From positions 24,635 through 88,634 of the forward strand of contig JAYZAY010000056.1 of NCBI GenBank assembly GCA_036339465.1: a DNA stretch of 64,000 nt, read 5' to 3'. The first letter of the stretch is position 1, and each line of letters starts with the position of its first letter. This DNA comes from Myxococcota bacterium (GTDB taxonomy: Bacteria > Myxococcota > XYA12-FULL-58-9 > JABJBS01). A program made the translations under genes and the position numbers. The notes below the pieces were generated by a model. It was not told the origin of the DNA and made no database searches. It was given only the letters and a program-made list of their open reading frames with translations. Positions 6,518 through 63,705 of this stretch are shown in pieces.

Positions 6518-6997
6518 TCAGCTCTTGATAACACCTTGTTGGATTTGCATTTGAGCCAGTAGATCTTGGGCTGATATTTTCTCGGCGCAATCCTTGTCTT
6601 CCTGTGCATTGGCACGATTGATATTAAGGCTTTGCACGGCGTTTTTGAGGGTGTCATCTTTTTGGTCGAGGAACTTCTGGCCTGATTCACCCCGATCTTG
6701 TTGGGTATCGGCCACCTCGGCGCAATCCTTGTTCGGTTCGGTGGTTTTGGTGGGGTCGATGCCCTCGGTGGCTTGAGGATCTTGTAGGTCGGTAGGGTTT
6801 GGTTCTGGCTGCGCATTGGCAGGGACACCGTTTCCGGTTTTTGTGTCCATTTCAGCGGGATCGTCACCCTTGGCTCTAACTTTTTCTGCTGTTTTTACAA
6901 CGTCTTCGAGAATCACTTCGTTGTTTTGTTGGGCTTCAAATTGCCGAAGCATTTCGCTTACGTCTAATTTTCCACCGCCGCCACCAATTGAGCTCAT
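6518..6997 (-). CDS. Hypothetical acidic low-complexity protein
   Basis: ATG with GAGG RBS; MSSIGGGGG start; internal repeat KDCAE x2. Confidence 0.7.
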   Translation of the reverse strand: MSSIGGGGGKLDVSEMLRQFEAQQNNEVILEDVVKTAEKVRAKGDDPAEMDTKTGNGVPANAQPEPNPTDLQDPQATEGIDPTKTTEPNKDCAEVADTQQDRGESGQKFLDQKDDTLKNAVQSLNINRANAQEDKDCAEKISAQDLLAQMQIQQGVIKS

Positions 6998-7349
6998 GAC
7001 CTAACCTCGCGTTTTTTCTTCAGCTTCCGATAAAAAGGGACGCCAACTTAAATTCTAATGGGTTCTTGGTGCCGGAGTCTACAGTAAAGAGGGCACCTAA
7101 GCACGCTCCTCGATGATTACACGCAGAAAACCAAGTGGGCGAGTAAACCTGGGTTCGGAAATCTATGTTTTGTCACCAGTTTTCCTCTCGGGGGTAGCCA
7201 AGGAAGTGTTTCTTTTATGGGAGAGTGTGTGTTTTGGTGGAAGTGGCGATTGAATCTATTTCCGTGGTGTGGGCATCTTCAACGTGGCCTGTGCATAGGG
7301 CCAGATCGTGAAGGTCACGACGCCACAGGGCCGTTACGCCATCGTGTGA

Positions 7350-8525
7350 TTACTGGTTGGCCTTTCTGAAATTTTTCTGCAACCATTCTTGGAAGAGAGG
7401 AGAGTCTAGGGTGAGCTCAAGATCGTTATGGGAGTTCCCCTGGTAATTGCTGTTGAGTTCTAAGATATCGCCGCTGCTCTTCACATTTTCAAACTGCTGG
7501 TCTTTATGATCAGCGACGGTGAGCTTGGGACCTTTGGTGGCATCAAGGTAATATTGGGTAGATAGTCGGTTGGCACAAAAAAACCAGGTTAGGCCGTAAA
7601 TAATGGCTCCAAGGGTGTTTTTGAGAAGCCTGATGCGTGACTTTACCATGGATCCTGCGGCATCGGGTAAGCTTCGAAAGCCGCGGTCGCAGACGAGGCT
7701 CATGTTGGGGTGATTGGAGGCGAGATAGGCGGCGTGGCTTGCCCCGAGAGACCGCCCGTGAACCAAAATATCGCTGTCTTCGATGCCTTTTTCTCTTTTG
7801 AGCCATGCGCAGATGGATTCCATATCTCTGAGTGTGCGTTGGGGGGTGGGAACTCCTTGGCTATCGCCAAAGCCACGGTAGTTGAAGAGGAGAACATTAT
7901 ATCCCATTTTCTCTGTGTAAAACTTGGCAAGGGTATTATTTGTCTCGTAATGGTCTGCATTGGGGCAGCAAAAGAGGACGGTTTTTGCAGTGGGGTGGTC
8001 CGTTGATTTCAAGTAAACACCGTCTAGATTGATTGTCTTGATGGGATTTTGAATGGGGCCGTAGAGATATGCCCTGACCGGAATTGATACGTGTTCAGAA
8101 TCGTTGGCGGCGAGCAGGGTTTGCCGGAAAATACGTCGGTTTTTTTGGGGCGTTATTTTTTCATTCGTGCTCCATCCTGGGTATGTCACGGCATCCACGA
8201 TTCGGCCGATGGGGAGCACAAGATTGATGAGTTGGCCGGTCAACCTTATGGGACTGAGAAGGATTTCAGTGGTGATTCGAAGTACCTTTTGTCCCCATGA
8301 CGGGTCATCCTTATGGGTGAGGTTTTCTCGTTGTGAGGAGACCGCGTACTGTGGAGCCCGCGCGAGGACATCGGTGGGGGAAATTGCCATGGGCGACATC
8401 GCCACCTCTTGGTCTGTTGGGCTGGATGGGCGAGGGATTGGCTCAATGGGCCAAAGCGTTGTTATTTGAGGTCGGTGGATGGTTTGGATGGGCACGACGT
8501 TTCCTTGGCGAATATCTTTTTTCAA
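7350..8525 (-). CDS. Alpha/beta hydrolase (ABHD-like) with long N-terminal extension
   Basis: FNYRGFGDSQG, GRSLG nucleophile elbow, DRGF, SHN; true start may be downstream. Confidence 0.85.
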   Translation of the reverse strand: MKKDIRQGNVVPIQTIHRPQITTLWPIEPIPRPSSPTDQEVAMSPMAISPTDVLARAPQYAVSSQRENLTHKDDPSWGQKVLRITTEILLSPIRLTGQLINLVLPIGRIVDAVTYPGWSTNEKITPQKNRRIFRQTLLAANDSEHVSIPVRAYLYGPIQNPIKTINLDGVYLKSTDHPTAKTVLFCCPNADHYETNNTLAKFYTEKMGYNVLLFNYRGFGDSQGVPTPQRTLRDMESICAWLKREKGIEDSDILVHGRSLGASHAAYLASNHPNMSLVCDRGFRSLPDAAGSMVKSRIRLLKNTLGAIIYGLTWFFCANRLSTQYYLDATKGPKLTVADHKDQQFENVKSSGDILELNSNYQGNSHNDLELTLDSPLFQEWLQKNFRKANQ

Positions 8526-8550
8526 TTACCTTTTTCAATGGCTGTAAGGA

Positions 8551-8578
8551 TTATCGAAATGCGGATGGGTTTGTTGCG
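8551..8578 (-). promoter_or_regulatory. Candidate sigma-28-like promoter CGCAAC-N16-CGATAA
   Basis: Plus strand TTATCG-N16-GTTGCG; same motif and spacing at 26528-26555. Confidence 0.55.
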
Positions 8579-8703
8579 CTTTTGCATGTGTAAGTGACTG
8601 ATATTAGCGACTATTCACCGATGGACCAGGCGCTGGCTTAAATTTGCATCTCGGCACCGAACTCGATACCAATCAGCAACTCGCCAAAGCAGGAGGCTAG
8701 GCT

Positions 8704-10020
8704 TTGAATTCGGCAATAGGACCTGTGGGAAAGAAAGAGATTTTTGGTTGGGCGATGTATGATTTTGCCAATTCCAGTTTTGTGACTGTGATTATCACCG
8801 CCATTTATTCTGGTTTTTTCACCGAATACATCGTTCCCAAAGATTCTGCATTTAAAAATAGCTATTGGTCCATGGCCATTGTCATTGCCACGGTCTTAGC
8901 GCTTCTTTTATCGCCTTTGGTTGGCGCGGTTTGCGACGTTACGGGGGCGAAGAAAAAAGCTTTGGGGCTAAGTACCTTGGTCTGCGTTTTGTCGTCTTTG
9001 GGATTGATGTTTGTGGAACCCGGGGACGTGGGCCTCGGTGTTTTGTTTGTCGGGGTTGGGTTTGCGGGTTTTATGCTGGGGGAGAGTTTCTGCGCCAGTT
9101 TTCTAAGCGACTTAGCGACACCCAAGAATATGGGCATGGTTTCCGGTATCGGGTGGGGAATTGGCTATTTTGGTGGTATTGGAAGCTTGGTGTTGGTGTT
9201 GATGATTGTCACAGCCAAGCCCGACGTGGATCTCGCTCTTTTTATTGAACAAAACCAATGGGCTGCCGCATCGGTTGGGATCTTTTTCTTCGTGGCGGCA
9301 ATGCCCACATTTTTATGGTTAAAAAATCGCTCCAAGCCATTACCTGGTTATGAGAACATGTCTTTGGTGGCGCAATTTCGATCGGGTTTTGGGCGCTTGA
9401 TGGAGACCAAACGGCAAGCCCATAAGCACCAAAAACTCTTCTCTTTTCTAAAGGCCTTCTTATTTTACTACGCAGGGATGTCGGCATGTATTACCTTTGC
9501 GGGTATCTTTGCCCGGGCGGAACTAAAATTTGAAACGACCGAACTCAGTATTATGTTTTTGCTGATTCAGTTCAGCTCGGCTCTTGGGGCGTTGGGTTTT
9601 GGTTATTTGGATACGAAATGGGGCCCCAAAAAGACGGTCTTGATCACCATTGCCATGTGGATTGTGGGTGTCCTAATCCTTTTTGGCCTAGACAGTATTG
9701 CAGGGGTTTTGGGGGTGACACCACAGCAACTTTTTTATGGCGATAGTCTCATAATAGGAACGGGTATGGGGGCCATGCAATCCTCTAGTCGCGCCATTGT
9801 GGGGGTGCTTTCGCCCCGAGAGAGGAGCACGGAACTCTTTGGGTTTTGGGGATTGTTTTCCCGGGCGGCATCGCTTTTGGCCATGCTTTTGGGGCCATTG
9901 TCTGATTTCGTAGGCTCTATTCAGCGTGCTTCGCTTCTACTGGTTTTTTTCTTTGTGGTGGGTGGTGTGATGCTGTGGCGAATTGATATCCATGTTGAGG
10001 AGGATGGGGCGCCTGCTTAG
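8704..10020 (+). CDS. MFS transporter, UMF1/Atg22-like
   Basis: WAMYDFANS motif, about 12 hydrophobic segments, QSSSRA; AGGAGG RBS. Confidence 0.92.
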   Translation: MNSAIGPVGKKEIFGWAMYDFANSSFVTVIITAIYSGFFTEYIVPKDSAFKNSYWSMAIVIATVLALLLSPLVGAVCDVTGAKKKALGLSTLVCVLSSLGLMFVEPGDVGLGVLFVGVGFAGFMLGESFCASFLSDLATPKNMGMVSGIGWGIGYFGGIGSLVLVLMIVTAKPDVDLALFIEQNQWAAASVGIFFFVAAMPTFLWLKNRSKPLPGYENMSLVAQFRSGFGRLMETKRQAHKHQKLFSFLKAFLFYYAGMSACITFAGIFARAELKFETTELSIMFLLIQFSSALGALGFGYLDTKWGPKKTVLITIAMWIVGVLILFGLDSIAGVLGVTPQQLFYGDSLIIGTGMGAMQSSSRAIVGVLSPRERSTELFGFWGLFSRAASLLAMLLGPLSDFVGSIQRASLLLVFFFVVGGVMLWRIDIHVEEDGAPA

Positions 10021-10964
10021 CTCTCTCGCTTTTGTTGAAGGCTGTCTGTTAAATTGCAGCCCAAGACCTGAAGGGAGCCGAGCACATTGGTCAAATCCGT
10101 GGGCATGATGACGGTTTTGGCGCTGGGAGCTGCGGCCACATCAGCCAGTGCTTGAATCTGTCTTTTCATCAACTCAAATTGGATGGCGGCGTCGCCATTT
10201 TCGGTGATGGCTGCGGCCATCAGGCGCGTCTGCTCTGCGTTTGCTTCGGCGGTGATGCGGGTGGCATAGGCGTTTGCATCGGCGCTGATGCGCATGGCTT
10301 CAGCGTCTCGTTTGGACTCGAAGAGTTTGGCTTCGGAGGCCAGTTCGATGGAGCGTTTTTCACCCTCGGCCCGGGCGATGGCGGCCCGACGTTCCCGTTC
10401 GGCATTGAGTTGCTGTCGTTGGGAATCTTTGGTTTGTTCGTCCACAAGGACGTCGGTTATTTCGGTTCGGGTAATCTCAATTCCCCATGCAGTGGCCGCT
10501 TCCTGGAGATTGGTGGCGATTTCCCCGTTCATCGCTTCCCGGCTGGATTGAAGGGCGTCTAGTTCAAATTTCCCCACGGCGGAGCGCACGATAGAAGTAG
10601 CAGCGGTATCGATGGCTGCTTCGATGTTTTGAATCCGGTAGATAGAGGCGCCCGCATCGATGATCTGATAGAAAACCGTGGCGGCAAGTTTGACTTCGAC
10701 GTTGTCTCTGGTGATGCCGGGAACCTGAAATTCCGCAAGTTGTTTTTCTCGGACCGATATTTTGTGGGCGACGACATCTAAAAACGGGGTGATTAAATTG
10801 AGTCCTGATTTCAGGGTTCGTTGATATTTGCTGAATCGCTCAATGACGTATACTTGGGATTCGGGGACGATTTTGACGGCCTTGTAGATGAGTATTAAAA
10901 CCAAAATGCCGCCACAAAGGCCGAAGATGAGTCCCGGGGTAAGAAAGGTCATAAAGGTCTCCAT
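10017..10964 (-). CDS. SPFH/band 7 protein (QmcA/paraslipin-like)
   Basis: TM then KIVP...VIERF, ITRDNV, WGIEITRTEI, AERERRA..AEG. Confidence 0.93.
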   Translation of the reverse strand: METFMTFLTPGLIFGLCGGILVLILIYKAVKIVPESQVYVIERFSKYQRTLKSGLNLITPFLDVVAHKISVREKQLAEFQVPGITRDNVEVKLAATVFYQIIDAGASIYRIQNIEAAIDTAATSIVRSAVGKFELDALQSSREAMNGEIATNLQEAATAWGIEITRTEITDVLVDEQTKDSQRQQLNAERERRAAIARAEGEKRSIELASEAKLFESKRDAEAMRISADANAYATRITAEANAEQTRLMAAAITENGDAAIQFELMKRQIQALADVAAAPSAKTVIMPTDLTNVLGSLQVLGCNLTDSLQQKRES

Positions 10965-11064
10965 TTTTCTTTTTTTGAGGAATCAATGGAGGGGAATTTA
11001 CTGTTTTCAACGGTCGATGGCCAGAAATCGACCCATTTCTTTGATTTACAAAAAAGGGGGAGCG

Positions 11065-11538
11065 GTGCAGAAAATGGCGATCTTTGTCGATGTGCAAAAC
11101 ATCTATTACACCACGCGCGATGTTTATGGACGGCAATTCAATTACAGGAAATTGTGGGAACGTGTTTCGGCTGAAGGCGAGATTGTTTCGGCCACAGCCT
11201 ATGCGATCGACTCTGGTGATGACAAACAGCGAAAATTCCAGAAAGCCCTCCAGCACATTGGATTTAGGATTAAATTGAAACCGTTTATTCAGCGGCGTGA
11301 CGGTTCGGCCAAGGGCGATTGGGACGTGGGTATCACCATTGATGTCTTGGAGGCGGTGGCAAGTGTCGATAAGGTGATTCTCCTTTCCGGGGATGGAGAT
11401 TTCGATCTCTTGCTCGAAAAGGTACGGGGTCAGGGTGGGATTTTGGCCGATGTGTATGGCGTTCCAGGCTTAACGGCAAACTCCCTGATCGCAGCGGCGA
11501 GTTCCTTTTATCCCATTGACCAAGATTTGTTGCTTTGA
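11065..11538 (+). CDS. NYN domain protein (LabA/DUF88)
   Basis: AIFVDVQNIYY, KGDWDVGITID, SGDGDF; start GTG 11065 or ATG 11074 after GGGGGAG. Confidence 0.92.
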   Translation: MQKMAIFVDVQNIYYTTRDVYGRQFNYRKLWERVSAEGEIVSATAYAIDSGDDKQRKFQKALQHIGFRIKLKPFIQRRDGSAKGDWDVGITIDVLEAVASVDKVILLSGDGDFDLLLEKVRGQGGILADVYGVPGLTANSLIAAASSFYPIDQDLLL

Positions 11539-11801
11539 GTGGTGATTGAATATTCGGTTTTTTTCTTTTCTTTGGCGAGAGAAATGCCCCGAAAACACTG
11601 AAAAAAAGACCATCTTGGGCGGCAGATCATGGGGAATCCGTGCTTATGGCTGCTATTGGCTGGACAGACCACGGTGATGTGCTAAAGCTTCGCTTCGTCG
11701 AGGGGAGTGCCTTTTGCTAAATTGTTGCTCTTTTCTCGATGTTGCGCGAATGTTGCGCGAATTAAATGGCTGGAAGTGATCTGGCGCATTAGGAGAGATA
11801 A

Positions 11802-12128
<327 letters not shown>

Positions 12129-44578: not shown

Positions 44579-45505
44579 TTAGTGCTCTTTTTTACGGAAG
44601 ATAAAAAGGCAAGTGATGATAATGACCGCGGAGACCAGAGTTGCTATTTGGGGATGAATCTGAGCCACTTCCACAGGCGCACGGCTCTGTCCCAAAAGCT
44701 CCTGTCCCCGGCCGATGGCGAGGCTGATGCGTCCCATCACCGTAAAGCCGAAGGATGCACCGAAGCTAATCATGAGCACCATGACCCCAAATCGGGTGAG
44801 TAGATGTTTGTAAGGGCTCAAGGTGAGGAATGGGGCCGCGGCGCAAAGCCCGAGTCCCAGACCTACGGCGATTTTACCACCCGTGCTCTCAATGGGCGCC
44901 ATGGTCAAAGCGCAAGCCATCACGAGTACGAAGGTCACGATCCCCATAGGAACCCCAAGCCGCTGACTGCGGGCATCGATTTCACTGAAGTAGAAGTGAA
45001 TGAGGCAGGCCGATAAGCCCACCACCAAAAGTGTATCGCTGATGACGCCCGCTCCGTCTGCTTCCCAATTCCAGAGACCATGCTTGTCCCAGGATTCACT
45101 CATGTTGGGAAAACTTGCACCAATTTGCCCGATGAGTTTGCCACTGGTTTCACCGGTGATTTTCACTGCGGCGTAGGCAGCCACCAAGATGGCGATGGGC
45201 ACCCGAGCCACCCAGGCGTATTTGGGGCTGATTTTGAAGAGCAGCATCACCGAGAGAACCAGGGGAATAAGATAAATCAACTGATCGGATTCTCCGGAAA
45301 ATCCTTGGCCTATTTTGTCGAAAAGGTTTGGCTTAAGCAGATTCCAATAGGCTTCCACGATGCCATAACCAGTAGCGACACCCATAAAGAGGTGCTCGGC
45401 CACCTTGTAAATCGGGTTGTCGTCGAAAAGAAATGAGAGTACGGTGAGGGTCAAAAAGATACTGACCCAAGCGCCCACGAGCTGAGCGAAAGCCATTTCT
45501 TCCAT
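44579..45505 (-). CDS. Polytopic membrane protein (GlmL-like operon)
   Basis: LTLTVLSFLFDDNPIYKVAEHLFMG, MISFGASFGFTVMGR; about 8-9 TM; start ATG 45505 after GAGGAGG. Confidence 0.85.
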   Translation of the reverse strand: MEEMAFAQLVGAWVSIFLTLTVLSFLFDDNPIYKVAEHLFMGVATGYGIVEAYWNLLKPNLFDKIGQGFSGESDQLIYLIPLVLSVMLLFKISPKYAWVARVPIAILVAAYAAVKITGETSGKLIGQIGASFPNMSESWDKHGLWNWEADGAGVISDTLLVVGLSACLIHFYFSEIDARSQRLGVPMGIVTFVLVMACALTMAPIESTGGKIAVGLGLGLCAAAPFLTLSPYKHLLTRFGVMVLMISFGASFGFTVMGRISLAIGRGQELLGQSRAPVEVAQIHPQIATLVSAVIIITCLFIFRKKEH

Positions 45506-45506
45506 C

Positions 45507-46361
45507 TTAGGCCTCCTCAATGCGGCGGGTAATGAAGAATGCGATATTACCCATGATGATTAAGACAATAATAAAAACGTGTCCAAGATTCAGAACGTCC
45601 ATGGCAGCGGTGGCCAAAAGCTTGACCCCGGGGGCCGGCTTGTCTTTCCAAACCAATTTTTCGTATTGCGCTGAGCCGGGCATCCCCATACTCAGGCCCT
45701 TGAGCTGACCGGATTTGTAAAATGGGATATAGTCGGGGCCGCCTACTGCGGTACAAACGCCCACCATATTGAGGTTGTATTGACCTTGGATCTGCAACAC
45801 GTATTCGTTTAGGCCGGGAAAGCCGGCTGAAATACTTACGATTAATGGAAAATCCTTGGCTTGGCGACGCCCTTGCATAATCGGGAGATCCGGCAGTGGC
45901 GTGCCGTCGTAATCTGTGGGGAATTGCTGAAAGATATTTTGGCCGATGTTTTTGATGACCAGCTCTTTACCTTCTTTATAACCGAGAAAGACAAAGTCTT
46001 CGCCGTATTTCTTATTGTAGGTTTTGGCGATGGCCTTAATTTCTGGAAGCACCAGTGGAATGGCCGTGGGCCACAACGTCACCAACACTGGCTTCAGGTT
46101 GCGCCGGAAGAGGTGATGGAGGTGGGTGGTAAAGAACGGGCCGATTTCTGGGACCGACGCAGGGTCAAAGTCAGCTGAAATCAAGACGGCGCTTCCCTCG
46201 GGAAGTTTTTCCACTTGCCGATAGACATCCCGCACTTCCTTGTCCACGCGAAAGGGTAATTGGAGCGGAAATACCAAGGGGATAAAAATGGCAATGGCCA
46301 TGCCCAGGAAAACCCAGCGGCGGTCCATGCGTTGAAATTTAATAAGCCATTCTAGCATCAA
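45507..46361 (-). CDS. Membrane-anchored protein with large extracytoplasmic domain (GlmL-like operon)
   Basis: N- and C-terminal TMs; YGEDFVFLGY, PFYKSGQLKGL..G..GSAQYE. Confidence 0.85.
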   Translation of the reverse strand: MMLEWLIKFQRMDRRWVFLGMAIAIFIPLVFPLQLPFRVDKEVRDVYRQVEKLPEGSAVLISADFDPASVPEIGPFFTTHLHHLFRRNLKPVLVTLWPTAIPLVLPEIKAIAKTYNKKYGEDFVFLGYKEGKELVIKNIGQNIFQQFPTDYDGTPLPDLPIMQGRRQAKDFPLIVSISAGFPGLNEYVLQIQGQYNLNMVGVCTAVGGPDYIPFYKSGQLKGLSMGMPGSAQYEKLVWKDKPAPGVKLLATAAMDVLNLGHVFIIVLIIMGNIAFFITRRIEEA

Positions 46362-46996
46362 TCACTCCCTAGGTGGCTGCGTTCGATTCCCAAAATAATA
46401 CGCACACCGGTTGCAATGGCGCCGAGAGCGGCTCCCACGAAGATGGCACGCCGGGCGGCGACGTTAGGAACATCCATCAACCAGTTTTGAAAAACAGATA
46501 AGTAACTACCAATCACCGGGATTTGTTCTCCAATGGGCACCCGCGCCAACATGACGATGCAGGCGGCGACCAGGAGAACTGTGGCTTCGGCGTTTCGGGC
46601 GCGAAAGGCGCGAAAGGCGGCGGAGGCGATATAGAATGCCAAGAGGGAGAACATAGTGGCATTGAGGGGCACCAGGAGGAAATCAAAGAGCCACTTATAG
46701 ACCATGCCGTCCTCCATTCTGGGACCGGCCTCCCAGAACCCAAAAAAGGTGGTGACCACCATGGAACCCAGCATAATTGCTTTGTAAATCCAATCGGGCT
46801 GACGTTCGAGCACACGGGGCAGGTTGACTTGAGTGAGGTTGATAACCCCCAAGAGAAAGGCGACGCCCGCGATGACGGTGCCAAATTCAAGCACCAGGGT
46901 TTTGATGTGTTGATAGTACCAATGTGGGATGAAAAATTCTCCCAGCATGAATACACCCACGATAAACGTAATAATCAAGGGAAGCGTGGTACGCAT
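46358..46996 (-). CDS. Polytopic membrane protein (GlmL-like operon)
   Basis: TMFSLLAFYIASAAFRAFRAR, AARRAIFVGAALG; about 6 TM. Confidence 0.85.
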   Translation of the reverse strand: MRTTLPLIITFIVGVFMLGEFFIPHWYYQHIKTLVLEFGTVIAGVAFLLGVINLTQVNLPRVLERQPDWIYKAIMLGSMVVTTFFGFWEAGPRMEDGMVYKWLFDFLLVPLNATMFSLLAFYIASAAFRAFRARNAEATVLLVAACIVMLARVPIGEQIPVIGSYLSVFQNWLMDVPNVAARRAIFVGAALGAIATGVRIILGIERSHLGSD

Positions 46997-46999
46997 GGC

Positions 47000-48328
47000 T
47001 TAACCTCCCGCCAGTTGGAAAAGGGGTGGAATAAAATTGAAGCCCAAACTCACAGTCACCGTGCCGATGACCAAAAGGCCCACGGTGGCAATTTTGACCC
47101 AGTCGGATGCTTTCAGGGATGAAACCAACCGGGCATCTTGGCTGAGATAAGCGGAAACCGCGAAAAGTTCTTCGCCGATAAGGGTGTAATCACAGGCGGC
47201 GATGAAGAAGGGAAGTTGGGTTGCTTCTGCGGTGCCTGCAATCTGAATGGACTGATTTACATAGCCGGTTTCTGCGAGAATAAGTGATTCGGCGAAAAAC
47301 CGGCCCAAATAAATATTGGTTGCCGGCTTCTGACGGTGCATGATCCCGTTGGTTCCCGCGCAAAATGCGAATTGGTCAGAGGCAATGAAGCGAACGCTGG
47401 TGGGGTCGAAAGCATCGGGATGCCCGGCGCGGTAATAGCCTGATTTGACCACCTCATCAGCAACCTCTCGGACGATGGGCACGCAACAGGAAACGATAAC
47501 ATCAGTTTGATATTCCGCGATGGTCTTAGATACTTCACCGAGAATCAACATGGAGGCAATGGTTTGAATATCCTCTAGAGAATCGATGCCCGGCACATAA
47601 AGTACTGGCCGGCCCATTTCCGTGGCTCGGCCAATGCCTTCTTCAATGGCGTCGATGCCGGGAATGCGGCGGATCTTAATCTCGTTGCCTTGCCGGACTT
47701 GATGGGTAAAGAAGAAAATCATACCCGTCACGGAGACAATTAAGGCCAAAAGTAACCAGATCCCAGGAATATTTTTGAACCAATGCGCGACCGTATCGCC
47801 TTCGCCGGCCACACTTCGAATGGCGGCTGCCACGATTGCATCGCCGGTGATTTCTTTGGTGACTTTGAAATCCTTGGGAAGCACGACCACGCGGTACCAG
47901 TAGTGGTCCGCTGGCGGGTTTTTGGAAACATCGTCGGTGACCTTATCGGTGTAGGTGAGTTTGTCGGGGCTAAGTCCTGTTTTGGCGATGGTCCATGGGC
48001 CGTTTGGGCTCTTGGCAGAGCGCACCACCGCAATCTTATTGTCGGCAGCGGTGGTGATGGTCCAATCCAGTTTTAAATGTAAGCCACTGCCATTATCGGG
48101 GGCTATCACCGTCAAAGTAGGGGCAACCTCTTTGAAGGCGACTTTCTCTGCGGCGGGTACGGCTTCACCTTCGGCCGCGGTTTCGCTCTCCGTTTCATCT
48201 ACAGCGGGAGCGGCTTCGGCGGCCTCTCCTGTGGGAGCATCTTGCGCGCCTGCGGGCAATGCCCACAGCAACGATGCGAACAAAAGAGGAAATGCAGGCA
48301 AAATAGGAAATGCAGGGGTTCGTTTCAT
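47000..48328 (-). CDS. DUF6754-like membrane protein with N-terminal Fn3-like domain
   Basis: Signal peptide, Fn3-like YTD...YWYRV, TM, IRRIPGIDAIEEGIGRATEMGRP, CDYTLIGEELFA. Confidence 0.8.
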   Translation of the reverse strand: MKRTPAFPILPAFPLLFASLLWALPAGAQDAPTGEAAEAAPAVDETESETAAEGEAVPAAEKVAFKEVAPTLTVIAPDNGSGLHLKLDWTITTAADNKIAVVRSAKSPNGPWTIAKTGLSPDKLTYTDKVTDDVSKNPPADHYWYRVVVLPKDFKVTKEITGDAIVAAAIRSVAGEGDTVAHWFKNIPGIWLLLALIVSVTGMIFFFTHQVRQGNEIKIRRIPGIDAIEEGIGRATEMGRPVLYVPGIDSLEDIQTIASMLILGEVSKTIAEYQTDVIVSCCVPIVREVADEVVKSGYYRAGHPDAFDPTSVRFIASDQFAFCAGTNGIMHRQKPATNIYLGRFFAESLILAETGYVNQSIQIAGTAEATQLPFFIAACDYTLIGEELFAVSAYLSQDARLVSSLKASDWVKIATVGLLVIGTVTVSLGFNFIPPLFQLAGG

Positions 48329-49452
48329 TCTTGGATACTCTCCACGTTGGCGCGGGGCAACATCGCGGTTTTGCCGTCTTTGAATTCCACTTCCATGATT
48401 CGAACTTTGGTCTCTGATTCCAGGGTCATTAAGTCTACGGGGAGAGACTTCACTCGGCCGATTTCCCCGAAATAGGGAGACCGGATGCCTCGGATGTTAT
48501 CGCCGAGCTGGATCCCTGTGGGATCGGGTGGTGTCCAACGCTCCGTGAGTGCTTCGGCGCAGTCGTCGGTGATGACCACTTCGGGCCGAATAACCCCGGC
48601 GCGGATCTGGGTGGCGCCATTGATGGAGGCCCGCTCTCCGATGTGTTCTTTGAGGAGCGCGAAGGTTGCGGGGGCCATTTGGATGTGTCCAAAGCCTTCG
48701 GTGACCACCAAGGTAAGGCCCAAGGCTTCGTTTCCTGTAATGGCCACGCCTACTTCGTAGCCTAGAAGTTCCTTTATATCGTCGTAATCAAAACCGCCGG
48801 TGACCAAGCCTGCCACCCCCACTTCCACGGCCCGGGCTAGGGCTTCGAGGGTAAGGTAGGCGCCGCCCACCACGATTTTTCCTGTCATGTCGGCACGAAT
48901 ATTTTTCGCTTCCAGCACATCGGTGGGATTTTCGACGCCCAAGACCAAATTGCCTTTGGTTTCTCCGCCGAGTCCGAAAATCCCTTGCACCAAGGCAGCC
49001 TTGGCTTGAACCACGCAACCCTCGTTTTTGTGGACTTCCACCAAATGACCATTGATATAGGCATCCACTTCCACGGGGATGGGATGGGATTGAAAAATAA
49101 CTTCGCCGGAAACCGAGGAGATGCTTTCAATGGTTCCGGACACGATGGCTGCAGACTCGGATTTAAAGAACCCAAAAATACCAGGTGTCGAAGCGATGAC
49201 CTCGCCTTCGGTGACCGTGTCGCCAGCCTTTTTTCGCATGAAATCCTTCAAGCGAGCGGCGGAAACGCCCAATTGATTGGCGACGTTGATGGGATAGATT
49301 TTACCGGGAAGCTGGGTACGGGCCACGATATCGTCCGCTGAAACCTTATCGCCAACTTTGACCAAAACCTCACCCTCGAGGGGCAGGCGCCGGTCTTTGA
49401 TGACCACCGTTTCTGCGGCCACTTTCAGGCCCGGGGTAAAAATAGCTGCCAT
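48325..49452 (-). CDS. Hypothetical protein with barrel-sandwich-hybrid-like repeats and KOW-like tail
   Basis: VLVKVGDKV..DDIVA and KAGDTV..GEVIA; VQGIFG; TQIRAGVIRPE; GDNIRGIRSPYFG. Confidence 0.85.
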   Translation of the reverse strand: MAAIFTPGLKVAAETVVIKDRRLPLEGEVLVKVGDKVSADDIVARTQLPGKIYPINVANQLGVSAARLKDFMRKKAGDTVTEGEVIASTPGIFGFFKSESAAIVSGTIESISSVSGEVIFQSHPIPVEVDAYINGHLVEVHKNEGCVVQAKAALVQGIFGLGGETKGNLVLGVENPTDVLEAKNIRADMTGKIVVGGAYLTLEALARAVEVGVAGLVTGGFDYDDIKELLGYEVGVAITGNEALGLTLVVTEGFGHIQMAPATFALLKEHIGERASINGATQIRAGVIRPEVVITDDCAEALTERWTPPDPTGIQLGDNIRGIRSPYFGEIGRVKSLPVDLMTLESETKVRIMEVEFKDGKTAMLPRANVESIQE

Positions 49453-49454
49453 GG

Positions 49455-51272
49455 CTACACGCCCTCCGCGTTAGGATACGCACCCATGCCGTTGACCCAG
49501 TCTTTGAGTAAGGGCGTGCGTTCTGATTGATTCTTGGGCAGTCGAATGGCGCGACCTCGCGTATCAAAGACCAGTCCCACCACACCACCCCGTAGTTTGC
49601 CGGTGAAGGCTTTGCCCAGTCCTTCACCGATGTCGAGATCCGGCTGGAGGGGGGTGATGGTTGCTTCGGCTTCCGTATCCGGTCCGCATTGAATGAGTTC
49701 GAGTTGGTCGGCATGGATGGTTTTATCCACAGAATCGCCACCGGGCAGTTTGAGCTGAATCCGAAGCACAGGTTTTTCGGGGCGTAAGGGTCCGATGGGG
49801 GCAACACAGGTGCCGAGGTAAATGATGCAATCTTTTTCGAAAACTTCCGTGGCCGCTTCTTCGTTCACCGTTGACAAGACGCCCAAGTGGGGCATCATGA
49901 AAATGGAGTCCACCGCGATTTCCGTAATGCCCTCAGGCGCATAGGCATCAATCATCATGTACATGGATTGTACGCGGCGCGGTGCATGGGAAAGCACACC
50001 GCCGGATCCCACGATGAGATTCAGGTTCATCATCTTCACCAATGAATTGTCTTCGCTTTGCCGAAAAGCGTCGGCGATGGTTCGTTGCTTTTGAATTCCC
50101 TTCAGGCCCACGGCAAATTCTTTGTGTTGCACGAAGGCCAGTCGAAGCGCTTCGCGGGCAATGGCTTGCTCGATCTGCAATTCCTCAAGGGATTGTGGAA
50201 TGGTGGTTGGGCGAATCATTTTATTGCCGATTCGATTTCGAAGCTGTTTTTCGTTGATATCGAATGGTACCCACCGCAGTACATTGGGAAGACCCGCTTC
50301 GGCCAAGACATTACTCACCGAATAGCTCATGCCCAGGTTGGCGGAGACAGTCCGGTTAAAGATCCCTTCGAAAACACTGAAGACGTCTGTGGTGGCACCG
50401 CCGATATCCACCCCGAGAATATTGATGCCTTTTTTCTTGGCGATGGTTTGCATAATCAAACCCACAGCACCGGGGGTGGGCATAATGGGAGCGTCGGCCC
50501 AGCCCATGAGTTTGTCGTATCCAGGTGCCTGGGCCATGACGTGTTCCATAAAGAGGTCATGGATTTTATCCCGGGCTGGCCCAAGATTTTCCCGTTCCAT
50601 TTCCGGACGGACATTTTCAATTAAATCAAGCGCCGAAACATCTTTAAGCAGAGAGTCGACGTCGTCTCGTACGTCTTGGTTGCCCGCAAAAATAATAGGT
50701 AGGTTGAAGCCGCCACCCAATCGAGTTCGAGGTCGGGCGGCGCGTATCCGTTCGGCCAAGGTGACCACATGCTTTTTGGTGCCACCGTCTACCCCACCGG
50801 CCAATAAAATCATGTCCGGTCGAAGCTGCCGAATTCGCTCGATTTGTTCGTGGGCGGGGCGATTGTCGTTGGATGCAAAAGTATCCATCACGATGGCGCC
50901 GGCGCCAAGGGCGGCTCTGGCGGCGGATTCGGCGGTCATGGATTTCACCACCCCTCCCACCACCAATTGCAGACCGCCACCGGCTGAAGAAGTCGAGATA
51001 TAAAGGTCGACGCCCTGTCCATCCACATCGGGGGTCTTGATGGAAGTGCCCTCCACGAGGGCTCGGCCCGAGAGTTCTTGGACCTCCATCGCGGCGTTAA
51101 GCACCCCTCGGGTGACGTCTTCGAAAGGTGCCTCGACGGTGGTGGGCGCTTCGCCTCGATAGGTTTGGCGCCAAGAGTCACCGATTTTCTCGATGAGAAT
51201 GGCTTTGGTTGTGGTGCTGCCACAGTCGGTGGCTAAAACACTTCGAATTTCACGGGGGGCAGCATCGGTCAT
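49455..51272 (-). CDS. GlmL/MutL (glutamate mutase L)-like actin-fold ATPase
   Basis: DCGSTTTK, SSAGGGL, LAGGVDGG, MPTPGAV, DIGGATTDV, GSGGVL. Confidence 0.9.
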   Translation of the reverse strand: MTDAAPREIRSVLATDCGSTTTKAILIEKIGDSWRQTYRGEAPTTVEAPFEDVTRGVLNAAMEVQELSGRALVEGTSIKTPDVDGQGVDLYISTSSAGGGLQLVVGGVVKSMTAESAARAALGAGAIVMDTFASNDNRPAHEQIERIRQLRPDMILLAGGVDGGTKKHVVTLAERIRAARPRTRLGGGFNLPIIFAGNQDVRDDVDSLLKDVSALDLIENVRPEMERENLGPARDKIHDLFMEHVMAQAPGYDKLMGWADAPIMPTPGAVGLIMQTIAKKKGINILGVDIGGATTDVFSVFEGIFNRTVSANLGMSYSVSNVLAEAGLPNVLRWVPFDINEKQLRNRIGNKMIRPTTIPQSLEELQIEQAIAREALRLAFVQHKEFAVGLKGIQKQRTIADAFRQSEDNSLVKMMNLNLIVGSGGVLSHAPRRVQSMYMMIDAYAPEGITEIAVDSIFMMPHLGVLSTVNEEAATEVFEKDCIIYLGTCVAPIGPLRPEKPVLRIQLKLPGGDSVDKTIHADQLELIQCGPDTEAEATITPLQPDLDIGEGLGKAFTGKLRGGVVGLVFDTRGRAIRLPKNQSERTPLLKDWVNGMGAYPNAEGV

Positions 51273-51580
51273 TGAATCACCTCCGATGGCGTTGGTGCGC
51301 TGGGCCTCGCACTTTGTTTTTCAATAGCGGTAATCACGTATTCAACACCGCGCCGGTCTTCCATGAGCTTGGCGATTTCATCCCATTGTGCGAATGGAAC
51401 AAGCCCGCCGACCACCGGAGACAAGAGGTGCATGAATTGACTGCCTACAAACGATAAAGGTCGCATGGATTCCAGGGCGAGAATGGCGGGAACCGTGAGT
51501 CCCCATTTCACAACCAGGTGCGCCATTTTTTCTACGGCCGCAGCTTGGGCCTTGTTTACTTGGAGTGGGGTTTGGCTCAT
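51269..51580 (-). CDS. Small hypothetical protein (GlmL-like operon)
   Basis: PAILALESMRPLSFVGSQ; 4-bp overlaps on both sides. Confidence 0.8.
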   Translation of the reverse strand: MSQTPLQVNKAQAAAVEKMAHLVVKWGLTVPAILALESMRPLSFVGSQFMHLLSPVVGGLVPFAQWDEIAKLMEDRRGVEYVITAIEKQSARPSAPTPSEVIQ

Positions 51581-51987
51581 TTTACTTCCTGCAGATGGCT
51601 GGCTAGAAAGGCGCCCACTTCAGCTTTGCGTTCTGGGCATCTTATCCACACATTTCTACGGCGAGCGATGAAGGGGATAGCCCCGCGTCCACTCAGAAAA
51701 TAGCCGTCATGGGTGCTTTGCCAATGTTCAAAGCGTTCCCAGGGGCGTCGGGCATGGCGGAAGATATTAAACGCTTCTACACCCTCTGGGGTGAGACGGA
51801 AGCGGGTGGGGAAGAGAGCTTCGGTGGTGGCTGTAAGGAGAATGAAGGCGGAGATGATTGCGTATATCCATCCCATGGACGAAAATGCGGCCACGGCACT
51901 TGCAATAATGAGTGCTCCTAGCGCCGCTCGGGCGGGCTTACGCTTTGCGGGCCAATGCGTCCAGGTAATCAAGTGTTGTTCTCCCAA
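51577..51987 (-). CDS. Small 2-TM protein with PH-like C-terminal region
   Basis: Two TMs then FPTRFRLTPEGV...RPW; TTG start (alternative 51972). Confidence 0.75.
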   Translation of the reverse strand: MGEQHLITWTHWPAKRKPARAALGALIIASAVAAFSSMGWIYAIISAFILLTATTEALFPTRFRLTPEGVEAFNIFRHARRPWERFEHWQSTHDGYFLSGRGAIPFIARRRNVWIRCPERKAEVGAFLASHLQEVK

Positions 51988-52198
51988 AATTAGGCGCGCC
52001 CACCTATCTAATAATAGGGTCGAAAAGCAACTGTTTGACTCCCAACTTGCGGTTTTTTAATCATTCGTTGTGCTGCTGGCTGTGACCTATTCTGCGTTTA
52101 TCGTATTGTTAACTTTAAGAGTCTTTTGAAGTAATAGGGTATAACCACCTAATAATGAATGATGTTTTCATATTTCATAGCCGGCATTTTTCTGTCAT

Positions 52199-52599
52199 CC
52201 AAGGCATGGGCCGGTTGCTAGGTAAGAACATCATAGAACTTACTGAATCCAACTCTCTCCAGCAAACACAATAAGCATGTGGCCGCGGGCCATAGTTCTT
52301 TTGGGCCTGCCGCGGCCGATGAATTCAAGTGGAGGTGCAGGATTACTTGATCCTAAGCGAGGCCTTCATCAGGGAGAAGCCGTGGTTCTTAGAGCTCTCT
52401 TCAAGCGCAGAAGACGACGTGGGTCTAAGGACGCCTACCAAGCTCACAAGAAGGTCGTAGCCTCTCTTTTGGTGGCTTACTTCGGATGAAGTAATCAACT
52501 CCCTCCAAGAAAGCGGATCGGCACCGAGCAGGCAACCAAGGCATGGGCCGGTTGCCAGGTAAACACCCCGCAGGACTCACCAAACCCAACTCTCTCCAG
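52199..52599. repeat. Two gapless 64-bp imperfect direct repeats flanking a multi-hairpin region
   Basis: 52199-52262 and 52536-52599, 52/64 identical by hand alignment. Confidence 0.85.
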
Positions 52600-59892: not shown

Positions 59893-59929
59893 AAGCAAGG
59901 ACTTCGTTATAAAGCAAGGACTTCGTTAT
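59893..59929 (+). repeat. 18-bp tandem duplication of the translation initiation region
   Basis: AAGCAAGGACTTCGTTAT at 59893 and 59912; the second copy runs into the ATG. Confidence 0.9.
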
Positions 59930-62900
59930 GAAGAAAGAACCTTTTTCGCGAATTGCAATTCTCAATCGAGGGGAAGCGGCCATTCGCTTCATGCGTGCCG
60001 CCCAAACTTATAGCGGTATTTACTCTCAGCCCCTTGAAACTGTCGCTTATTACACCACGCCCGATAGAGCGGCGCTCTTTGTTCGAATGGCAACGCACGT
60101 CTACGATTTGGGCGAGGCCCTAGTTCCTGGGCCCGATGGGAAAATGCGATCCGCCTATCTCGATATTGAACGTGTTATTCATGTAACCAAGAGCGTTGGC
60201 GCTACCGCCATTTGGCCGGGATGGGGTTTCTTAGCCGAGAGTGCCGATTTTGCTAAGGCCTGCGAAGAAAACGGAATTACGTTTATTGGACCGTCTTCGA
60301 GTGCCATTTCGCTTCTTGGAGACAAAATTCGAGCCAAGCAACTCGCCAAACAATGCAATGTTCCAGTAACCGGTTGGTCAGACTCTGATGTAAAAGACGT
60401 GGCCGAGGCTCGGGAAATCGCCGCCAAGATTGGTTACCCACTCTTAATCAAGGCGAGCGCCGGGGGTGGTGGACGAGGCATTCGAATTGTCCGCAAAGAC
60501 GATGAACTCGAAGTTGCTTTTGACTCGGCTCGAAGTGAAGCCCTTTCGGCGTTTGGTTGTGCCGATGTTTTAATGGAGCAATTGGTCGAAAAAGCTCGGC
60601 ACGTTGAAGTTCAAATTATTGGCGACACCCAAGGAACCGTTTGGGCTTTGGGAACGCGTGATTGCTCCGTTCAACGGCGTCATCAAAAACTGATTGAGGA
60701 AGCGCCAGCCCCTGATCTTGCTCCTGAGATTGAACAGGCGATGTGCGATGCGGCGATTGTCGTGGCTAAAGAGTCTAAATACGTTGGAGCAGGGACTGCC
60801 GAATTTCTTTACGAACCTGACACCAATAATTTCTACTTCTTGGAGATGAATACCCGCCTTCAAGTGGACACACACGATTACTGAAGAAATTTACGGGGTT
60901 GATTTGGCGGTTCAGCAAATTCTGGTAGCTCAAGGAGAGCCTTTACCATCAGAAGAACCTCCCAAGCGGCGGGGAACCGCCATTGAATTGAGGCTGAATG
61001 CTGAAAACCCCGATGATGAGTTTGCTCCTTCGGCGGGGGGGATTTCTCGGTTTGAAGCCCCCCAAGGCCCTGGAATTCGATTTGATTCCGGATATTCATC
61101 TGGAGACGAAATTCCAACCGAATTCGATTCAAATATTGCTAAAATCATTGCTCGTGGTGCGAATCGAGATGAAGCGTTTTCCCGTTTGAATGCGGTACTT
61201 CGGGATACCATTGTCGCCATTGCCGGTGGCCCAACGAATCGTTCTCTTTTGATGGAATTGGTTACCAACGAGGAAATTCGAAAAGGTCCCGTTACAACTC
61301 ATTGGCTTGACCATTATCTCGAAGCGCGCCCAGCTCCCGAAGACCGGCCGGGTCTTGCAATTGCGTTGGCTGCTGCTGCCTTAGGCGACCACTTACGCCA
61401 CCGCCGAGGTTCTGTTCTCAATTTTCTTCATAGTGCTCAACGGGGATTGCCTCAGCGCTCGATTGCTGCTGGGCCGTCGAAGTGGCGCTACGTTGTTGGT
61501 AAGCAAAGCTTTGATTTAACCGTTGCAAGTCTTGCTTCGGGATTGTTTAGAATCACCTGCGGTGACGGAGGTATGGATTTACGTGCCCTTAATACGGGGC
61601 AGCGAACAATGGTCCTTGAAGAGAGCAATGGAGTGCGACATACGGTGTTGCGAATTGCGACGGGCACGGCAGTCCATGTCGATATTGACGGGGTCGCTAG
61701 AACGTTAACTCGGGCCAGTGATGGTGCTATCTTGGCTCCGATTCCCGCGGCCGTGACTCGGGTGCACGTTAAGGTTGGTGATGTGGTTCAGCTTGGGGAC
61801 AAGCTGATTACCCTTGAAGTCATGAAAATGGAATCGGGGGTTGCTTCTCCTCAATCGGGGGTGGTCACCGAAGTTTTTGTTGATTCGGCCACTCGCGTAG
61901 CTGCCGGTGACTCGTTAATGACAATTGAAGAAGAAGTTTCAGACGATGATACTTCTGCGGCAGTTCAAGCATCGCCCTTTTCCAAGGAGCCAAGACCCCT
62001 GAAGGGCTTGAGCCTACTTCGAGCTGCGCTTCTCGGTTACGATGTTCATAAACGAGAGTTTGACGATGCGGTTGCTCAACTAGAGACTGGCGAATTGAGC
62101 TTTACCCGGAATGAGTTGACAGGTCTTCTCGATGTTATTCTCTTGCAAGAATCGCTCTTTGCCCGCGGCGTTTTTGATGATGCTCGCAATGATTCGGGGG
62201 AGTCTTCGGCTGACCAACTCTTACGATTTATTCGACATCCGCTTGGGGATGAAGAGGCATTGTCCGAAACATTCAAAGAACGGCTTGACCGAGTCCTGCG
62301 GCTACACAATTTGGTAGGCCGTCGTCGACGGTTCGAGTTAGAAGCGGCATTGTTGCGCTTATTCTACAGCAACCTTCAGTCTCAGCGCCTTCAACGAGTT
62401 CTTTTTCTTTTTACCCTTGTGGATGCCATTTTGGCTACTAAAGGCTGTCAGGAATCCGAGGCTGACTGCGACCATAATAGAGAACTTTTAGAGGGCTTTG
62501 CTCATTATGCTGCTGGACAAAATCGACGGTTAGCTCAATCCGTTTGGCACACCATTTTTAGACTTTATGACCACCCCCAGATGCTGCTTGCGGCTCAAGA
62601 TAAAGATGAAGAAGAAGAAGAAGAAGCAAGCAAGCTTTTGAATGCGCTTGTTAGTGGTAAGGAGAACACTACTCGTGCATCGGTTCTAGAGTTTTCCTTG
62701 GCCGCCTTGTTGCGTATTACAATTCGTCAGGAGAACTCCAATCACTCATTCCAAATTCTTAGTTTGATGATGGAGCACCTCTACGAAGGTGCTGACCTTA
62801 TTCTCAAAGAAGCTGCAGATGCCGGCCGTGTTACCGTTGCTTCATCTCGGGATGATAATCGCTGTGTGGCCGGAGCATTGATTTTGTGCGACGCGGATGT

Positions 62901-63705
62901 TGCCAAAGCGGTAGCGGCTTGTGATGGGCATAAAGAAGCGGACCTATTCTGGGGGGCCAAGCCCAAAGACTCCCAAGTAACGTCGTTGATCGCAGATCTT
63001 CATGAACTTGATCGAGTTTCGTTTATCTGGCCAGCTCCACAGACCGGCGTTCGGGTGCGAACGTTTTCTCGAATCAATGCGCAACTTCAAGAACAAACCA
63101 TCATTCGGGACATTCATCCAGCCCGACCCATGGCGGGTGATTTAGAGCGCTGGAAAGACTTTCACTTAGAGCGCTTGAATGCGCCTTCCGATATTTGCTT
63201 GGCTTTGGCGACCGCGAAAGATGGTTCAGGGGACCAGCGGCTCCTAGCCTTAGGTGAAATCGACCGCTTTGACCCAGTTCGATGTGATTCTAAGCCCGGT
63301 AGTATTAGTATTCCGGCTTTTGAGAGTATGTTCCACCATTCAATTTATTCCATCAGCCAGGCATTAACGAGTTTGGGCTTGGGGCAAACTACGAAGGGAC
63401 GAGGGAATCGCAAGCGCTTGGTTTGGAATCGAATTTCACTTTTTTACCGACCAGTGGTGCGACTAACTCGACACGAGATTGAGCACCTTGCGGCTCGATT
63501 TAGCTTGTGGGCCCCCGCTCTCGGCCTTGAGAAAGTAAATGTCCAAGCTCGGTTTGCCAATCCGAGTAAGCCGGACGCAGAGCCAAAGACCATGTGCATG
63601 GAATGGAGCGAACGGATGAAGAACACCTCAGTCTGGCACTTTGCTCAACCGGTCCACACGCCTCATAAAGTGGTTTCTAATTACGAGCAGCGCGTGGTGG
63701 GATAA
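59928..63705 (+). pseudogene. Multidomain acyl-CoA carboxylase (BC-BCCP-central), frameshifted and lacking carboxyltransferase
   Basis: NRGE, GGGGRG, RDCSVQRRHQK, EMNTRLQV; +1 base near 60869; continues to EVMKME biotin site; stops at 63705. Confidence 0.85.

Follow-up and report, generated by a model that had tools for sequence, protein, structure and literature searches.

An eight-gene operon of a Myxococcota bacterium that joins a GlmL-related ATPase to a four-subunit membrane complex: a probable new kind of membrane machine

In a 64,000-nucleotide stretch of the genome of a marine Myxococcota bacterium (assembly GCA_036339465.1, contig JAYZAY010000056.1, positions 24,635 to 88,634; this whole stretch is the window hereafter), eight co-oriented open reading frames (ORFs), g1 to g8, occupy positions 44579-51987 of the minus strand and probably encode a membrane machine of a new kind. 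We consider it an even call that these genes are one copy of a widespread and undescribed membrane system with three sub-modules. The first would be a soluble energy unit, made up of the ATPase g3 and its obligate partner g4. The second would be a four-subunit inner-membrane complex, g5 to g8, with the DUF6754 domain of g5 in the cytoplasm and, in the periplasm, the Rossmann-like domain of g7 together with a lineage-variable head (here the Fn3 domain of g5). The small accessory proteins g1 and g2 would make up the third. A preliminary description of this DNA, made from the letters alone, had allowed for a match to an already characterised system; none was found in profile libraries or the literature (Pfam, NCBIfam, the PDB and published papers, most subscription journals not being covered), and PADLOC anti-phage models searched with all eight proteins returned 0 families at E <= 0.01.

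The ORFs are tightly packed, with 4-bp overlaps at the g1/g2, g2/g3, g4/g5 and g6/g7 junctions and gaps of 2 bp at g3/g4, 3 bp at g5/g6 and 1 bp at g7/g8. The ORF list thus gives the same junctions as the preliminary description, which had reported eight co-oriented genes joined by 4-bp overlaps or 1-3-bp gaps. Its domain calls were also borne out, with the ATPase motifs in g3, a barrel and a KOW domain in g4, and Fn3 plus DUF6754 in g5, as were its membrane calls: a hydrophobic stretch in g1 fits the two transmembrane segments proposed, and g6, g7 and g8 are membrane proteins.

Conservation, linkage and natural fusions

The gene arrangement is far beyond chance and recurs on one strand in loci of several phyla. 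A genome collection yielded 589 confirmed relatives of g3, and 80 loci, with g3 identities of 61-83%, were kept. These come from metagenome-assembled genomes labelled Deltaproteobacteria, Neomarinimicrobiota/Fidelibacterota, Zixibacteria, Eisenbacteria, Sumerlaeota and Planctomycetota. By tblastn, homologues were found always on the strand of g3: g1 in 36 loci, where it always adjoined g2, g2 in 70, g3 in all 80, g4 in 67, g5 in 52, g6 in 48, g7 in 45 and g8 in 44. Many of the 80 loci stop at a contig edge, and the synteny of g3 with the membrane genes, on which the preliminary description had made its proposal depend, was judged on the 48 that have at least 8 kb after g3. As seen in 37 of these 48 judgeable loci, g4 to g8 follow in a row downstream of g3 on the same strand; all 37 also carry g2, which lies upstream of g3 in 19 of them and between g4 and g5 in the other 18. 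Tandem double sets of g5 to g8 were observed in some loci. Together, the two placements of g2 and the tandem sets indicate that the module consists of three blocks, (g1, g2), (g3, g4) and (g5 to g8).

The ATPase and the membrane genes were also found together at the level of whole genomes. Of 301 genomes sampled from the window's phylum, all of them 80% complete or more, 6 carry the g3-type ATPase. DUF6754 matches above 330 bits and g7 matches at E <= 1e-105 were each observed in exactly the same 6 genomes and in 0 of the 295 others, in agreement with the earlier proposal that the ATPase belongs functionally with the membrane genes. Three of the holders (G272, G208 and G266) carry the ATPase and the membrane genes on separate contigs, so adjacency is not the sole basis of the link. 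Of four other genomes in the family of the window's bacterium, one has the module, which marks it as an accessory system of patchy distribution.

Natural fusions of neighbouring subunits were also observed. Among 104 longer homologues of g4, 103 also carry PF13941, the Pfam family of g3, and are thus g3-g4 fusions. Fifty of these are close relatives (38-67% identity at 90% coverage or more, mostly of about 1000 aa), and the remaining 53 form a more distant class, some members of which have PF05896 NQRA or PF13375 RnfC_N matches. The last of the 104, P0002, is a g4-g5 fusion in which the end of g4 is followed by a signal-like segment, Fn3 and DUF6754, an order consistent with the predicted topology. 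Three g7-g8 fusions (P0182, P0184 and P0232) have one extra transmembrane segment between the two parts, which fits a g7 that ends inside and a g8 that starts outside; hhalign of g8 against the C-terminal half of P0182 gave an E value of 1.3e-47.

Two irregular arrangements were observed on the way. In G266, the g3 homologue (contig C11, about 875877-877680) matches piecewise in different frames and contains one internal TGA, which may point to a pseudogene or to an error in the sequence; the DUF6754 and g7 genes of this genome, on another contig, look intact. In the lineage of loci L019 and L045, restriction-modification and DinB-family genes are inserted between g2 and g3, and neither g4 nor the membrane genes are adjacent. 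The former is an Eco57I/MmeI-like type IIG restriction-modification gene of 1067-1085 aa (L019, 6771-9974; L045, 6721-9978). The 1067-aa ORF beside g3 in these loci had been a candidate for a fused membrane part, and it was rejected as an inserted Eco57I/MmeI-type restriction-modification enzyme.

The ATPase, its adaptor and the membrane subunits

g3 (49455-51272; 605 aa) encodes a soluble, GlmL-related ATPase of the ASKHA (actin/Hsp70-fold) type. It matches Pfam PF13941 MutL with 424.8 bits over profile positions 1-450 and is the sole PF13941 copy in the genome. The motifs DCGSTTTK, DIGGATTD and GSGG lie at residues 16, 289 and 422, respectively, and the residues of the phosphate-1, phosphate-2 and adenosine motifs are invariant across 28 homologues from several phyla, over which the mean column identity is 72%. 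A C-terminal extension of about 120 residues follows the Pfam domain. Hydropathy analysis gave no transmembrane or hydrophobic segment, and a PDB sequence search with g3, alone and as a profile, gave no match.

Public annotations label homologues of g3 "glutamate mutase L". The preliminary description had proposed that this ATPase is independent of glutamate mutase, and this is supported by several results. The g3 protein scores below the cut-offs of NF040745, the GlmL equivalog (227.1 vs 475 bits), NF040744, Or-4 (213.2 vs 600 bits), and TIGR01319, the GlmL family (161.9 vs 204.05 bits). Met_asp_mut_E (PF06368, GlmE) has no match in the whole window genome, which is 92.8% complete, and the five B12-binding domains of this genome are all on contigs other than the window's. 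In the 301-genome sample, three genomes have a GlmE match above the cut-off, and none of these is one of the six g3 holders; strict co-occurrence of the g3-type ATPase with glutamate mutase was therefore not seen. The nearest family of g3 by sequence is GlmL/Or-4, with which it shares the full PF13941 domain and the ASKHA phosphate-1, phosphate-2 and adenosine motifs, and equivalog membership fails on score and context. Unlike GlmL and Or-4, g3 stays under the cut-offs, lacks a mutase partner, carries the additional C-terminal region of about 120 residues, has g4 as its obligate partner and is tied to a membrane complex.

g4 (48325-49452; 375 aa) encodes a soluble three-domain adaptor, with a mean column identity of 64% in an alignment of 30 sequences. 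Pfam gave weak Biotin_lipoyl and RnfC_N matches, the latter (PF13375) at 16.9 bits, under its cut-off of 25.6. An AlphaFold2 model based on 30 homologues was obtained with a predicted local distance difference test score (pLDDT) of 86.7 and a predicted template modelling score (pTM) of 0.78, and its domains were compared with known structures using VIA-align. Residues 49 to 124, approximately, resemble a barrel-sandwich hybrid of the RnfC/NqrA type (8ahx_C, Z 8.0; 4u9o_A, Z 7.7), the match spanning about 60 residues. Residues 152 to 296 form a swivelling beta/beta/alpha domain of the type found in phosphoenolpyruvate (PEP) utilisers, which matches Enzyme I (2wqd_A; Z 9.7, root mean square deviation 2.6, 104 residues aligned) and rifampin phosphotransferase (5hv1_A; Z 8.9); RraA and aconitase X came up in that search as well (Z 7.6-8.2). 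Residues 311 to 375 form a KOW/SH3-like barrel (NusG, Spt5, NdhS; Z 8-9). Foldseek of the model against the PDB gave domain-level matches alone (TM-score at most 0.21) and no whole-protein match, and a search of the ESM Atlas with g4 returned its own family only. In the 30-sequence alignment no histidine is invariant or nearly so, which sets the swivel apart from classical phosphohistidine carriers. In the N-terminal tail, the first seven residues (TPGLKV) are strongly conserved and disordered in the model, suggesting a putative docking peptide.

g5 (47000-48328; 442 aa) encodes the Fn3 plus DUF6754 membrane protein and matches DUF6754 (PF20539) with 334.9 bits. Its parts follow in the order signal peptide or N-terminal transmembrane segment, acidic linker, periplasmic Fn3, transmembrane segment, cytoplasmic DUF6754 and C-terminal transmembrane segment. 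The N-terminal part of the family profile matched titin Fn3 domains in the PDB (E 1.7e-18), and the DUF6754 core, of about 200 aa, has 53 invariant positions with many invariant charged residues. Topology was predicted from alignment-averaged hydropathy and the positive-inside rule. In this prediction, g5 has Fn3 outside, one transmembrane segment, the DUF6754 core inside and a last transmembrane segment. The bitopic g7 (45507-46361; 284 aa) has its N-terminus inside, with an invariant DRR before the transmembrane segment, then a domain of about 220 residues outside, a second transmembrane segment and the C-terminus inside. The products of g6 (46358-46996; 212 aa) and g8 (44579-45505; 308 aa) are polytopic membrane proteins of no known family, with about six and five to seven transmembrane segments by hydropathy, respectively. 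The g5-g8 set is accordingly predicted to be an inner-membrane complex with periplasmic domains only. The mean column identity of the membrane subunits is 33-52%.

Database searches with these subunits yielded little. Homologues of g6, g7, g8 and g2 (23-30 each) gave nothing consistent against Pfam at E <= 1, a PDB sequence search with the DUF6754 core, g6, g7 and g8 gave nothing meaningful, and an ESM Atlas search with a g5 homologue gave no usable match. The g7 family itself is large, with 5507 clusters at E<=1e-3 in a 50%-identity library. A model of the g7-g8 fusion P0182, built from 81 sequences, is confident over the full fusion (pLDDT 81.6, pTM 0.82); in it, the soluble g7 domain is a generic Rossmann-like sandwich (1kjn, Z 9.6-9.7; TrkA/KTN, Z 8-9, by VIA-align). 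The list of matches is flat, with Z still 7.5 at rank 50, and names no function. Foldseek of this model against the PDB gave nothing at E <= 0.001, the g8 part being barely tested by either fold search. A pseudo-symmetric complex, with g5 paralogous to g7 and g6 to g8, was rejected at the sequence level (hhalign probabilities 1.3% and 0.2%).

Proteins of 775-2210 residues that match the DUF6754 part at E <= 1e-5 number 587. Many of the 120 listed among these carry a beta-propeller of the PQQ type or Fn3, and in 119 the DUF6754 core lies at the C-terminus. Such a constant core, with interchangeable heads that face outward, suggests that partners or substrates outside the membrane differ between lineages.

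Two features of g8 in the window are recorded here. Its longest ORF covers 44579-45520, and 22 homologues align from the ATG at 45505, which gives the 308 aa stated above. The protein also has a 54-residue hydrophobic insertion at residues 183-236 (44798-44959), which is present neither in the 22 homologues nor in P0182 and probably forms two extra helices.

The two remaining genes encode small proteins. g1 (51577-51987; 136 aa, TTG start) encodes a small membrane protein, taken as an accessory subunit, with a hydrophobic stretch of about 45 residues (about residues 17-62) that fits a hairpin of two transmembrane segments. A PH-like signal at its C-terminus is weak, with bPH_6 and YcxB each matched in 4 of 24 homologues (best E 7.6e-5). 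g2 (51269-51580; 103 aa) belongs to no known family and has no clear transmembrane segment; its conserved core (VPAILFLES.KPLSF.GSQ) is moderately hydrophobic.

Proposed mechanism and competing explanations

ATP-driven conformational coupling to the membrane complex is, in our judgement, as probable as all other modes of action taken together. Binding and hydrolysis of ATP would open and close the two lobes of g3, and the swivel domain of g4 would transmit this movement to the cytoplasmic DUF6754 of g5. The membrane complex would then work across or outside the membrane, either by transport of a substrate via g6/g8 or by a movement of its periplasmic domains, which may be likened to mechanotransmission by MacB/FtsEX-type systems. 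What the data show are the genes and their domains, their conservation and co-occurrence, the independence from glutamate mutase, the two kinds of fusion (g3-g4 and g7-g8) and the predicted topology; that g4 touches g5, which way energy flows and what work is done are steps that we infer. In type VII ABC systems (MacB, FtsEX, LolCDE), a cytoplasmic ATPase acts with few-helix membrane subunits that have sizeable, job-dependent periplasmic domains, and the g1-g8 system may be similar in logic, as a functional analogy. Unlike them, it shows no P-loop/ABC_tran match in any of the eight proteins, and its folds are different.

More tentatively, and with somewhat less than even confidence, we propose that the system represents a new class of primary-active machine. 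Here, an actin/Hsp70-fold energiser would take the place of a P-loop, P-type or rotary ATPase and, through a swivel-domain adaptor, would drive a four-subunit complex of new folds that works outside via exchangeable heads (Fn3, beta-propeller). The preliminary description had envisaged an envelope-spanning machine with the ATPase as its cytoplasmic motor, a role that is putative. The linkage to a membrane complex was sustained by co-occurrence and synteny, whereas a span of the whole envelope was not, the predicted topology being that of an inner-membrane complex with periplasmic domains only.

Several observations weigh against an ATP-driven machine of this kind. Eleven of the 48 long loci lack the membrane set beside g3, four having g4 only, six none of g4 to g8 and one g6 only. 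The g4-g5 fusion is a single sequence on one contig, and an assembly or gene-calling error is possible. No fold match assigns a function to g6, g7 or g8, the g8 part having been barely tested, and the role given to the g4 swivel, which has no conserved phospho-acceptor histidine, is guessed only. No expression data were found: the 22 sequencing runs listed included no RNA run with the genes, and those that do have them are DNA runs whose label is marine or seawater metagenome. Finally, in one genus, PF13941 and g4 were not found in 4 of 4 genomes that have membrane genes; the membrane part may therefore work without ATP, with the ATPase as a regulator and not a motor.

The four genomes of this genus are 84-97% complete and give weak DUF6754 and g7 matches. 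In one of them, a divergent four-gene g5-g8 set was located (locus L088, G029:C16:16000-34000, about 6627-12053, minus strand). Its g5-like protein, of 1056 aa, has a signal peptide, about 800 unknown residues and a degenerate DUF6754 at the C-terminus, and its g6, g7 and g8 homologues were matched at E values of 1.6e-37, 5.8e-41 and 6.3e-48, respectively. The membrane part can persist without the ATPase. In this variant DUF6754 retains 16 of the 53 invariant positions only; this drift of the domain where g3 and g4 are missing is indirect support for the view that its conserved face serves the ATPase unit.

The persistence of the divergent g5-g8 set without PF13941 or g4 in these four genomes is one of the points that favour the main rival explanation, which we regard as rather unlikely and as the strongest competitor. 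It holds that the membrane complex is self-sufficient, for instance powered by an ion gradient or acting passively as a channel or scaffold, and that g3-g4 is an ATP-dependent chaperone, gate or assembly/repair factor for DUF6754. GlmL-type proteins and diol-dehydratase reactivases have a proposed ATP-dependent, chaperone-like role on their enzymes, and the named proteins closest to g3 have accessory functions. In diol/glycerol dehydratase reactivase (DdrA/DdrB), the large subunit unites an ASKHA ATPase and a swivelling domain, and ATP powers the opening of a partner protein; g3 and g4 would between them offer both folds. Unlike in DdrA/DdrB, the g4 swivel shares its protein with barrel and KOW domains, this protein being separate from the ATPase or fused to its C-terminus, and the presumed client is a membrane complex. 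The unlinked positions of g3 and the membrane genes in three of the six holder genomes would also suit a helper. Against this explanation, co-occurrence of the strong-type genes is perfect (6 of 6), and the identities of g3 (72%) and g4 (64%) exceed those of the membrane subunits (33-52%), which would be unusual for a dispensable helper. Moreover, the cytoplasmic domain has decayed in the ATPase-less variant, which may do something else.

Three further explanations fit the data less well. In the first, which we consider improbable, g3 would phosphorylate the g4 swivel, which would carry the phosphoryl group to a substrate at DUF6754 or the membrane complex, a phosphotransfer or group translocation as in phosphotransferase system (PTS) Enzyme I, PPDK and rifampin phosphotransferase. 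The central domain of g4 does have the fold of the mobile domain of these PEP-utilising enzymes, with matches to the phosphohistidine swivels 2wqd_A and 5hv1_A, and the many invariant charged residues of DUF6754 resemble an active site. Unlike those enzymes, g4 has no conserved histidine and its partner ATPase is of the ASKHA and not the ATP-grasp type; the swivel fold is also shared with RraA and aconitase X, which are not phosphotransfer proteins. ASKHA ATPases are not known as partners of phosphotransfer relays.

A still weaker case can be made for an Rnf/Nqr-like ion-translocating complex with g4 in the role of RnfC/NqrA, which we hold to be very improbable. The g4 barrel resembles the N-terminal barrel of RnfC (8ahx_C) and NqrA (4u9o_A), which are peripheral cytoplasmic subunits of membrane complexes. 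The weak RnfC_N match, the distant fused relatives with PF05896 NQRA or PF13375 and loosely similar subunit sizes point the same way. This match is limited to about 60 residues of a common barrel fold, however, and the remainder of RnfC/NqrA is missing in g4. The membrane subunits are unrelated by sequence: no Rnf/Nqr membrane family (RnfA/D/E, NqrB/D/E) was found for g5-g8 at E<=0.01, nor in 23-25 homologues of each at E<=1. Flavin or Fe-S motifs were not seen, and energy enters by way of an ATPase instead of an NADH or ferredoxin module. The last explanation would make g3 a standard GlmL-type helper for a B12 enzyme whose gene lies at another site, with no relation to the adjacent membrane genes. 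It could draw on the PF13941 membership of g3, the naming of its homologues and the B12-binding domains on other contigs, but is close to refuted by the lack of a GlmE match in the window genome and the six holders, by scores under all GlmL/Or-4 cut-offs, and by the synteny, co-occurrence and fusions that bind g3 to g4 and the membrane genes.

Genomic setting and significance

On the same strand, upstream of g1 and beyond a spacer of about 700 bp, lie trkA and trkH; downstream of the operon, a convergent gene encodes a 1195-aa repeat protein. The GC content runs through the operon without a break. The trkA-g1 spacer contains a 67-nt direct repeat (52196-52262 and 52533-52599; 81% identity, 337 nt apart), and two further copies (79% and 75%) are present on other contigs of the genome. 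An Rfam search of the intergenic region upstream of g1, including this repeat, gave no match; the copies may belong to a small repeat dispersed in the genome or to a regulatory RNA. Elsewhere in the window, on the plus strand, a biotin-dependent carboxylase is divided between two adjoining ORFs. The first (59928-60884) has Biotin_carb_N and ATP-grasp domains, and the second (60904-63705; 933 aa) has Biotin_carb_C, a BT-like region and a biotinyl domain; the division is due either to a frameshift or to a true split of the gene.

Neighbouring genes were also inspected in the related loci. Directly upstream, 20 loci have cdsA and 8 have a gene for a yegS-like lipid kinase, all of the Marinimicrobia/Fidelibacterota type (e.g., L037, 9151-9975; L069, 8434-9324), a possible lipid-related lead that is confined to one phylum-level group. 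In loci of the Zixibacteria/Eisenbacteria type, gcvT, gcvP and lplA flank the module. No function was drawn from the neighbours, because none is common to different phyla.

If the proposed reading is true, a large and very conserved set of proteins, present in many uncultured marine and sediment lineages, has escaped description. An ASKHA ATPase that drives a membrane complex would be a new principle of energy coupling. The finding would also correct the widespread misannotation of such ATPases as "glutamate mutase L" and would give a context to DUF6754 and to three families without a Pfam model. Overall, the anatomy of the system, with its three sub-modules, fusions, topology and ATPase-less variant, shows which pieces to co-express.

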